Below are positions 18,001 through 19,836 of a DNA stretch of 19,836 bases, one piece after another (positions within the stretch are counted from its first letter, which is position 1; every line of letters starts with the position of its first letter). Location of the stretch: positions 1-19,836 of the forward strand of contig JBBQRQ010000093.1 in assembly GCA_038214755.1 (NCBI GenBank). The letters are read 5' to 3'. Position numbers: made by a program. The DNA comes from Verrucomicrobiota bacterium (GTDB lineage: Bacteria > Verrucomicrobiota > Verrucomicrobiia > Limisphaerales > CANJXF01).

Positions 18001-19836
18001 TTCTCGGCGGAATTATTATTCTCGCAAACGCAGATAACATATCGGCAAATTTTCTCAGCGCGATGAATGCCTATGCCCGCGATATTGCCAGGGGAGAAGA
18101 CGAAACGGGCGACGCCGCGATTTTGGCCGGATATTGCAATGATCTCGCGCCTGGTTCCGGTAATATCGTTCTCAATTATCTTCTGCGATGAAATATCCTG
18201 CCTTTATAATTTTTCAGGACGCGCGTCTATTCCAAGCCAGCTATTTGGAACAAACCGGCGATATCGAAGTGTTTGCCTTTCGAGGACGGGAATATCGTTT
18301 TGCCGGGCAGTGTCCGTTCTACCATCATTTAACTGACGCGGAGAAACGGCTCATCGGCTTCGTCTTAGACGGCGCGAACAATATTACAAAAGCTCTGGGC
18401 TGGTTTGAATGGATCAAGGCTGGAGAAAACAAATTTTTTGATGAGTCTTTCGAGATTTATTTTTATCTCAAGTGGCCCCAGCCGATACAATGGGATCACG
18501 ACGGTTCCACAATGATTGCCGCCAATGTGTACCACGATGGGCAAGGAGATTTTCTCATCACCATCGACGATACCAAAGCTACTGGCAGAGATGGTCAGTT
18601 TCAAAATCTCTGGAGCAGTATTACTTTCCCGCTGGCGCCTGCCGATCAGTTTCAAGTCATCAAATGCTTCCCGGCGTTTCAGAAATCCTAAATGTAAAGA
18701 ACTCCGAAACCGGGAGACTGAAAACGACTTGCCAACAGAAGAGCACTTCGCGACCAGCGCAATTCTTGCAACACTTTGGCTTTCGCCTGCGGATCTCTTT
18801 CGTCTCGGATTTCGGAATTTGGATTTTAAGTTCGACGCATTGCGCCAATGAAATTTGTTGATAGAAACAGACACATTCATCGCTCGTAAAATATTTCTAA
18901 ATACCTCTTGCGCGACAAAGACTCGCTGATATATTCCGCGTCCCGTTGCACCGGCAGGGTGCGCGGCAGCGATTTCAGCGTGACCGATAACTGACGCCTT
19001 TCCCGGCGCAGGATTGATGGCCAACGCACTCCAAGCTGTAATTTGGATTTTTGATTTTTATGCCTGTAAAGAGCTTTAGACCTTTAACGCCATCGACGCG
19101 CTATATCACCATAGCGTCGTTCGATGACATTACGAAAACGCATCCGGAAAAGAGCTTGATCGAGATCAAGAAAAAAACCGGCGGACGCAATCATTACGGT
19201 CGCGTTACCAGTCGCGGTTGGGGCGGCGGCCATAAACAGTTTCATCGCCTCGTCGATTTCAAACGGCACAAGCACGGAGTCGAAGCGGACGTGATCGCGA
19301 TTGAATACGATCCTCTGCGCACGGCGCGGCTGGCGTTATTGCAATATAAAGATGGCGTCAAGACTTACATCATCGCGCCGGTTGGTTTGACGGTTGGCAA
19401 AAAATTGATGAGCGGCCCGACGGCTCCTCCTGAGGTTGGGAACAGTTTGCCGCTGAGCGCAATTCCGGTTGGTTTGCCGATTCATAATATCGAAATAACT
19501 CCCGGTCGCGGCGCGCAGATGGTTCGCACCGCGGGTGGCGCGGCAACATTGATGTCGCGTGACGAAGGTTACGCGCAAATCAAATTGCCTTCCGGCGAAA
19601 TACGTCGTGTGAATGAAAATTGTTACGCGACTCTTGGACAGGTCGGGAATACCGAACACGAAAATGTCGTTCTCGGAAAAGCAGGGCGCAGTCGCCACCG
19701 CGGAATTCATCCGTTGAGCCGCGCGGTCGCGAAGAACCCGGTTGACCATCCGATGGGCGGCGGTGCTGGTAAAACTTCTGGCGGCGGACATCCGGTCACT
19801 CCGTGGGGTGTCATCACGAAGGGATACCGCACTCGT

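Follow-up and report, generated by a model that had tools for sequence, protein, structure and literature searches.

In E. coli, the S10 operon is repressed by uL4, the product of rplD, which binds a structured 5' UTR that is located before rpsJ and controls rplB and the downstream S10 genes. Both uL4/NusA attenuation and control of translation are involved. The leaders of uL1 (rplK-rplA) and uS8 (spc operon) are irregular stem-loops in or near the 5' UTR that copy the rRNA site of the protein, and rRNA mimicry is an established basis of ribosomal protein (r-protein) feedback (PMC10931766). For uL2, the product of rplB, a ribosomal leader (r-leader) candidate named L2-Alphaproteobacteria was rated borderline, and its ligand was a guess based on which gene lies nearest (Eckert and Weinberg 2020, PMC7247131). 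It occurs 5' of rplB-rpsS-rplV-rpsC in operons without the L4 gene, and L2 was proposed as its ligand; no rRNA mimicry is marked in the part of that paper describing it, and in 35 rows of its alignment (an 808-sequence file) a purine-rich tail accompanies two hairpins, and no loop resembles 23S rRNA helix 66 (H66). Table S1 of the same paper gives L2 as ligand for no earlier r-leader, and the uL2 passage of PMC10931766 lists no autoregulation.

The primary uL2 site is the H66 bulge at 1799-1800/1817-1820, which contains a base triple, of class I in bacteria (C1800-G1817-A1819) and of class II in eukaryotes (A1800-U1817-A1819) (PMC1919495). According to this paper, bacterial ribosomes do not use the eukaryote-type site, E. 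coli ribosomes work with class II variants (Kitahara et al. 2007), and what the L2 of E. coli recognises in class II sites is the shape of the backbone. The 25 clones from the selection carried out there yielded 21 functional sequences among 4096 possibilities; the list of variants is thus not saturated. Positions 1801, 1816 and 1818 were variable. Of the variants, GA/UGAU supported the poorest growth of E. coli, with a normal L2 content (PMC1919495).

Here we describe a leader located 5' of rplB in a Verrucomicrobiota bacterium of the order Limisphaerales, with features listed in Table 1. The window, i.e. the whole stretch of DNA analysed (19,836 nucleotides, contig JBBQRQ010000093.1), ends within rplB. 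The initial annotation had described an S10 operon split after rplW, which is then followed by a P450 gene, and this is borne out: the only rplW of the genome (G000 contig C97, 5263-5520) is preceded by rpsL-rpsG-fusA-rpsJ-rplC-rplD and followed by a long strong hairpin with a U run and then by a P450 gene (PF00067, E 4e-92). A larger sample agrees, as rplW and rplB lie on different contigs in 23/23 published leader-bearing genomes, including the near-complete G059 and G051; the unpublished G009, excluded from this count, has the same pattern. By eye, rplW is trailed by a hairpin and U run in nine of ten split genomes, and by a hairpin without a U run in the tenth. The window's rplB, which starts at 19060, is cut by the contig end and continues on contig C34 (141-nt overlap with the window end), where it is followed by rpsS, rplV, rpsC, rplP, rpmC, rpsQ, rplN, rplX, rplE, rpsN, rpsH, rplF, rplR, rpsE, rplO, secY, map, rpsM, rpsK, rpsD, rpoA and rplQ (names assigned by recognition of ORF translations). 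rplB heads this S10-distal/spc/alpha run of ∼24 genes behind a conserved promoter and a leader of ∼120 nt.

Table 1. Features of the rplB leader region (window positions, with structural elements as predicted).
Feature	Position	Strand	Remarks
A/T-rich tract upstream of -35, putative UP-like element	18888..18904	+	A-rich tracts in the same place in relatives (by eye)
Predicted promoter	18908..18935	+	-35 TTGCGC 18908-18913, 16-nt spacer, -10 TATATT 18930-18935, TG 18927-18928
P0, 5' hairpin	18943..18966	+	Variable sequence and length; folds better than shuffles (z < -1) in 57/61
P1 5' strand, CAGC	18967..18970	+	Long-range pairing with 19035-19038
P2a 5' strand	18978..18981	+	Pairs with 19024-19027; lengthens the stem below the loop, like the H66 base
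H66-mimic 5' strand	18984..18993	+	Corresponds to E. coli 23S 1797-1806
P3, variable apical stem-loop capping the mimic	18994..19008	+	Covarying pairs
H66-mimic 3' strand	19009..19020	+	Corresponds to E. coli 23S 1811-1822
P4, optional 6-bp hairpin	19030..19047	+	Loop holds the P1 3' strand (19035-19038); present in 32/61 leaders
U-rich initiation region, free of Shine-Dalgarno words	19048..19059	+	Last 10 nt before rplB 71% U in leader loci vs 40% in intact loci
rplB (uL2), proposed ligand	19060..19836	+	PF00181 and PF03947; best solved relatives are uL2 chains

Several other features of these loci were observed. Related GC-rich palindromic repeat units (REP-like) occur in several ribosomal-operon intergenic gaps (on the minus strand of C34, rplN-rplX and rplX-rplE) and just after rplW on C97, and short tandem repeats in other such gaps. 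The 337-nt map-rpsM gap on C34 (minus strand) seems to hold rpmJ and a divergent infA-like frame whose start lies at the end of map or inside it (both by recognition), and an ORF listing with a 55-aa cut-off contains no rpmD between rpsE and rplO. At 7509-10605 the window encodes a NurA-domain nuclease (E 2e-7) adjoining a HerA helicase (E 1e-16), then ORFs without Pfam match. The slot 5' of the rplB promoter (16833-18691) holds two overlapping ORFs (452 and 167 aa) without Pfam match, a layout that recalls a bacterial toxin-immunity pair, as an impression only.

A sigma70-type promoter of its own had been proposed for rplB, and the sequence pattern agrees. TTGC-NN-16/17-TAnnnT is found in 61/61 leader loci, with an extended-10 TG in 57 of them and a GC-rich stretch downstream of the -10, and in 0/60 intact loci at the same distance, which serve as a coding-DNA control. 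A generic sigma70 scan did not detect this promoter, because its -35 fits at only 3/6 positions (the -35 of the lineage being TTGC). Transcription would start near 18941-18943 as judged from the promoter sequence; with this predicted start, the leader would lie where r-leaders are placed, downstream of a promoter and within the 5' UTR of r-protein genes transcribed together.

The distribution of the leader was assessed from rplB loci collected by protein similarity and not by motif (134 loci, less seven duplicates). Among the resulting 127 Limisphaerales loci, 62 carry promoter and leader, 61 have rplW within 80 nt of rplB and four have too little upstream DNA, so that every locus with enough upstream DNA belongs to one of the two classes. 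Most leader counts given here refer to 61 loci, as the divergent 62nd (L141) was added later. Throughout the Limisphaerales loci surveyed, the leader is present only where rplB has its own promoter; rplW still lies 222-789 nt upstream of rplB in 4/61 leader loci. Outside the order, rplW-rplB is intact in 40/40 loci (about one per family, picked from the 147 non-self matches listed). Genome G004, cited in the initial annotation as keeping rplW-rplB, has the leader instead (locus L006), although handle numbers may differ.

Searches with a covariance model found seven further leaders, all directly 5' of rplB. In a class sample the model (R1) matched 12/21 genomes of the order and 0/129 others, and in a phylum sample its one match in 150 (E 0.43, no rplB nearby) left nothing credible outside the order. 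Matches of the core pattern do not exceed chance level in the intact genomes G030, G043 and G048, nor does a second match in G000; three of these were checked, and none is near any of the five r-protein genes tested. Among the matches of the bare core pattern listed for metagenomes, 81/120 lie just before rplB, five are cut short and 34 are unlinked, and the rplB genes beside these listed matches are 66-94% identical to that of the window. Viral matches were unlinked to rplB in 11/11 cases.

The leader had also been put forward as a new r-leader candidate, which holds on the larger sample. Rfam gives no gathering-score match for the window, the only hit at E<=10 being a chance match to narK (E 4.2). 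The leader does not belong to L2-Alphaproteobacteria, judged by the lack of an Rfam match at E<=10 and by the unlike alignment rows examined; that family is presumably included in Rfam. No description of the present leader was found in the published literature searched, which mostly left out subscription papers. The main text of PMC11109978, which reports 30 ribosomal leader candidates, mentions neither rplB nor Verrucomicrobia, and its supplement may bear on novelty.

A quick uL2 tree of 120 rows requires 11 leader changes, at least five of them forced by starred branches (the careful search being unfinished), and a 50-row subset tree, chosen after the 120-row tree had been seen and based on one gene, rejects a single leader clade (p-AU 5e-5). 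As the outgroups are intact, the simplest account is that a promoter-leader cassette was gained once between rplW and rplB, early in the order, with repeated deletion afterwards in some lines and rearrangement in others. Transfer of the cassette by recombination may be an alternative. Nine records titled Akkermansia or other phyla (L128, L131, L132, L072, L081, L092, L093, L122 and L126) encode an rplB that shares 74-84% identity with that of the window and clusters within the tree of the order, which suggests mislabelled or mixed bins.

The leader has a conserved secondary structure with covariation, as r-leaders do. A conserved leader with an internal-loop helix had been noted before rplB, and the enlarged alignment upholds this, with a leader of ∼120 nt and an invariant 5x7 loop. 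Five elements make up the leader: P0, the long-range helix P1, stem P2 bearing the invariant loop, P3 and the optional P4. Covariation is stronger than first claimed (three of ten pairs): in 70 model-aligned matches, 6/10 pairs change on both sides and 97.6% of cells pair, a level equalled in 0/500 shuffles and far above all slid controls, the alignment being fitted to the structure and the sequences related. RNAalifold applied to 51 unfitted sequences also yields the 5x7 internal loop, with double changes in 5/10 pairs. For P2a, two of four pairs covary and the duplex of a copy's own strands beats the cross-pair mean in 53/61. The P3 apical fold averages -7.5 kcal/mol in rplB-linked and -3.2 kcal/mol in unlinked metagenome matches, among those listed. 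The stems drift, but little or no change is seen at seven loop positions that are unpaired or non-canonical. Long insertions occur in P0 or in the 3' part of L068, L095, L065, L073, L081, L090, L092, L098, L105 and L106, and none in the mimic; in L068, ∼90 nt are inserted within the P4 loop with the closing pairs retained.

A likeness of this loop to H66 was taken as a hypothesis and tested, using E. coli H66 from an annotated record whose numbering is offset by one from PMC1919495. Across 22 positions, the window core and E. coli H66 have nine identical positions, ten in five swapped Watson-Crick pairs (1797-1822, 1798-1821, 1800-1817, 1805-1812 and 1806-1811) and three other differences. The latter are the unpaired positions 1801, 1816 and 1818, which vary both among leaders and in the E. 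coli selection. G18986 corresponds to G1799, A18987 to 1800 and A18989-A18990 to A1802-A1803, and UGAU at 19015-19018 corresponds to 1817-1820, completing the class II triple A1800-U1817-A1819. As in class II sequences, G1799, A1800, U1817 and A1819 are present in all 61 leaders, within a 5x7 loop that has closing pairs; the class I triple C1800-G1817-A1819 is absent, with A and U in place of its C and G in 61/61.

The leader resembles H66 of class II (PMC1919495) in having a 5x7 internal loop with closing pairs at either end and in keeping G1799, A1802, A1803, G1814, A1815, A1819 and mostly U1820, with A1800-U1817 where C-G is otherwise found and with variation at 1801, 1816 and 1818. It differs in that the core sits in an mRNA leader, that a longer variable stem-loop replaces the apical GAAA hairpin, and that the sequence of the basal stem is unrelated. 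A likeness of the P1 strands to the H66 base, seen by eye, was dropped because the P1 sequence changes in several lineages.

The letters at 1799-1800/1817-1820 are GA/UGAU in 42 leaders, GA/UAAU in 13, GA/UUAU in three and GA/UGAG in three (n=61). The first three combinations are variants N6-16, N6-15 and N6-13 of PMC1919495, and 58/61 copies thus carry exactly one of the three complete class II variants of that study. A C at 1818, not recovered in the same selection, occurs in 0/61 genome leaders, and among the metagenome and other matches listed in 0/81 rplB-linked vs 15/45 unlinked ones (p 3e-8, with the 1818 letter left free in the pattern and the related sequences not being independent). 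The relatives' own 23S rRNAs are class I, and the leader differs from those of uL1 and uS8 in its proposed ligand, in copying a variant that is not found in bacterial rRNA, and in having no Shine-Dalgarno (SD) sequence to sequester.

The specificity of the correspondence was examined with a descriptor (two pairs, then the loop GNNAA/GANNNAK, then three pairs, with Watson-Crick pairing required between 1800 and 1817) that was drawn from the leader alignment but written after the H66 idea. All 61 leaders satisfy it. The descriptor matches only H66 in 3/4 relatives' 23S rRNAs (G059, G048 and G051), misses H66 of G055 by one base and has no match in G059 16S rRNA, with 0.10 matches per 16S+23S in 300 shuffles. 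Omission of the 1800-1817 pair gives three extra matches, with 0.37 expected per shuffle, and a sequence-only core profile leaves H66 outside the top four sites in all four 23S rRNAs. G000 and G001 lack an assembled 23S rRNA, so that the rRNA comparison draws on one record from E. coli and on four genomes of the order other than these. The H66 of G055 (L032, around 1760-1780 of the 23S rRNA) carries an A in place of the G1814 shared by the others and E. coli, and its apical stem is AU-rich.

Among the alternatives, the one that survives best, though it is unlikely, is an r-leader that binds another ligand (uS8, uS4, uL24, uL22, uS17 or uS19) and resembles H66 through a shared generic internal-loop module. 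The run encodes rpsH and rpsD, whose products are established repressors (PMC7247131), but the letters tolerated in the loop follow the uL2-site selection (PMC1919495). Sequence alone fails to single out H66, but the strict descriptor finds no site in 16S rRNA and no other site in 23S rRNA. Kink-turns have invariant tandem G-A pairs after a 3-nt bulge; this assignment was rejected, as the base that would supply the G (equivalent to 1818) is G in 45 leaders, A in 13 and U in three, and the bulge length does not fit. uL2 is favoured as the likely ligand because the core copies its H66 site position by position, in the class II form.

Flanking the core, the P1 5' strand has an exact complement in the copy's own downstream segment in 54/61 leaders, against a shuffled mean of 5.7, and paired variants include CGGC/GCCG, CAGU/ACUG, GAGC/GCUC and UAGC/GCUA. 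The optional hairpin P4 is predicted to be either an alternative to P1 or to form a pseudoknot with it, the modelled energies in the window being -36.1 kcal/mol for the P1 fold and -35.1 kcal/mol for the P4 fold. It is conceivable that uL2 binds the mimic and that the output is transcription attenuation, with P4 and the U run acting as a weak terminator and P1 as antiterminator. Such a scheme would be analogous to uL4/NusA control of the E. coli S10 leader, from which the present leader differs in that rplD lies in a separate unit and the terminator is not conserved. This explanation ranks second, as improbable too. It keeps some weight because the two folds lie within 1 kcal/mol of each other in the window, where P4 directly precedes the U-rich run, and a U-rich tail follows in 18/32 P4 copies. 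However, P4 is missing in 29/61 leaders and the combination of hairpin and U tail is present in only 18/61; with its 5-6 bp, P4 is a much weaker hairpin than the terminators that follow rplW, and the U tract doubles as the initiation region.

SD-like words precede 4.9% of 899 long ORFs vs a background of 3.9%, i.e. the genome barely uses SD pairing, and an SD-like duplex is reached in only 4/61 leaders. SD sequestration is therefore unlikely as the mechanism. By eye, many of the outgroup Verrucomicrobiota loci (L169-L208) have SD-like words before rplB and the Limisphaerales loci are mostly without, which suggests a lineage-specific loss of SD use.

The reading we favour, with moderate confidence, is that the leader is a uL2 autoregulatory r-leader acting on translation initiation. 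The split, the promoter, the conservation, the covariation, the H66 correspondence and the absence of SD use are supported directly; from them we infer transcription from the promoter at 18908-18935, binding of uL2, repression, and the step repressed. By gaining its own promoter, rplB would have taken the distal S10 genes, with spc and alpha, off the rplD/uL4 transcript. The new 5' UTR would fold into P0 and a long stem whose 5x7 loop rebuilds the H66 uL2 site with the class II triple. Free uL2 in excess of rRNA would bind this loop and lower the expression of rplB, and of the downstream genes by coupling.

The likeliest route would be translation initiation, in which the bound, P1/P4-closed structure, ending 12-28 nt 5' of the SD-free, U-rich start region, would hinder or trap the 30S subunit; repression of r-protein synthesis by competition and entrapment of 30S has been described (PMC10931766). 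The distance to the AUG is 15-30 nt from the end of P1 in 51/54 copies, and 12-25 nt from that of P4 in 31/32. The mimic core is predicted to be preformed in 48/61 leaders, and locking it in constrained folding of 61 leaders changed the predicted accessibility of the start region only from 0.49 to 0.50, so that no refolding switch is seen by nearest-neighbour folding, a method that cannot model the P1/P4 pseudoknot. Counted against the uL2 reading are the class I host rRNA, the poor growth of GA/UGAU, the sequence-only profile, the unchanged accessibility, and the stability of the window leader, which is at shuffle level (z -0.18); moreover, in multi-gene operons of E. coli and B. subtilis it is usually not the first gene that encodes the ligand (PMC7247131).

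The unaltered accessibility and the preformed core would also fit a structured 5' UTR that works independently of protein, in mRNA stability or SD-free initiation, or a non-repressive uL2 site, e.g. for co-translational capture of nascent uL2, and the scant use of SD in the genome is in keeping with this. This explanation stands third and is rather unlikely: the stability of the seven loop positions against drifting stems points to a ligand surface, and these positions match a known protein site. A regulatory upstream ORF starting at the AUG found inside the core (1819-1821-equivalent positions) in 58/61 leaders is highly improbable and was rejected, as its frame relative to rplB is 0, 1 and 2 in 13, 28 and 17 copies, its length varies from two to 36 codons, and three copies have no AUG.

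For the uL2 r-leader, a wider claim is made tentatively, and we would lean slightly against it as a whole: that a bacterial mRNA independently reached the uL2 site of eukaryote type, possibly as a weaker decoy outcompeted by rRNA, that no uL2-sensing RNA with a recognisable site preceded this one, that a P1/P4 pseudoknot or switch sets the SD-free output of ∼24 genes, and that the cassette was repeatedly lost or moved within the order. The leader is judged real and its proposed ligand well argued. uL2 is among the most conserved primary rRNA-binding proteins and had no established leader in the part of the 2020 inventory that tabulates earlier r-leaders (PMC7247131); the distinctive point of the present case is an identifiable, eukaryote-type uL2 site. 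The claim is testable in E. coli, because E. coli L2 accepts class II sites and the ligand is named through a precise, mutable site. The 2007 proposal by which two RNA architectures read by uL2 are interchangeable (PMC1919495) has a natural test in this leader. The leader also poses the question of how r-leader repression works in a bacterium that barely uses SD pairing, and shows how feedback could be rebuilt once the S10 operon has been cut away from uL4.
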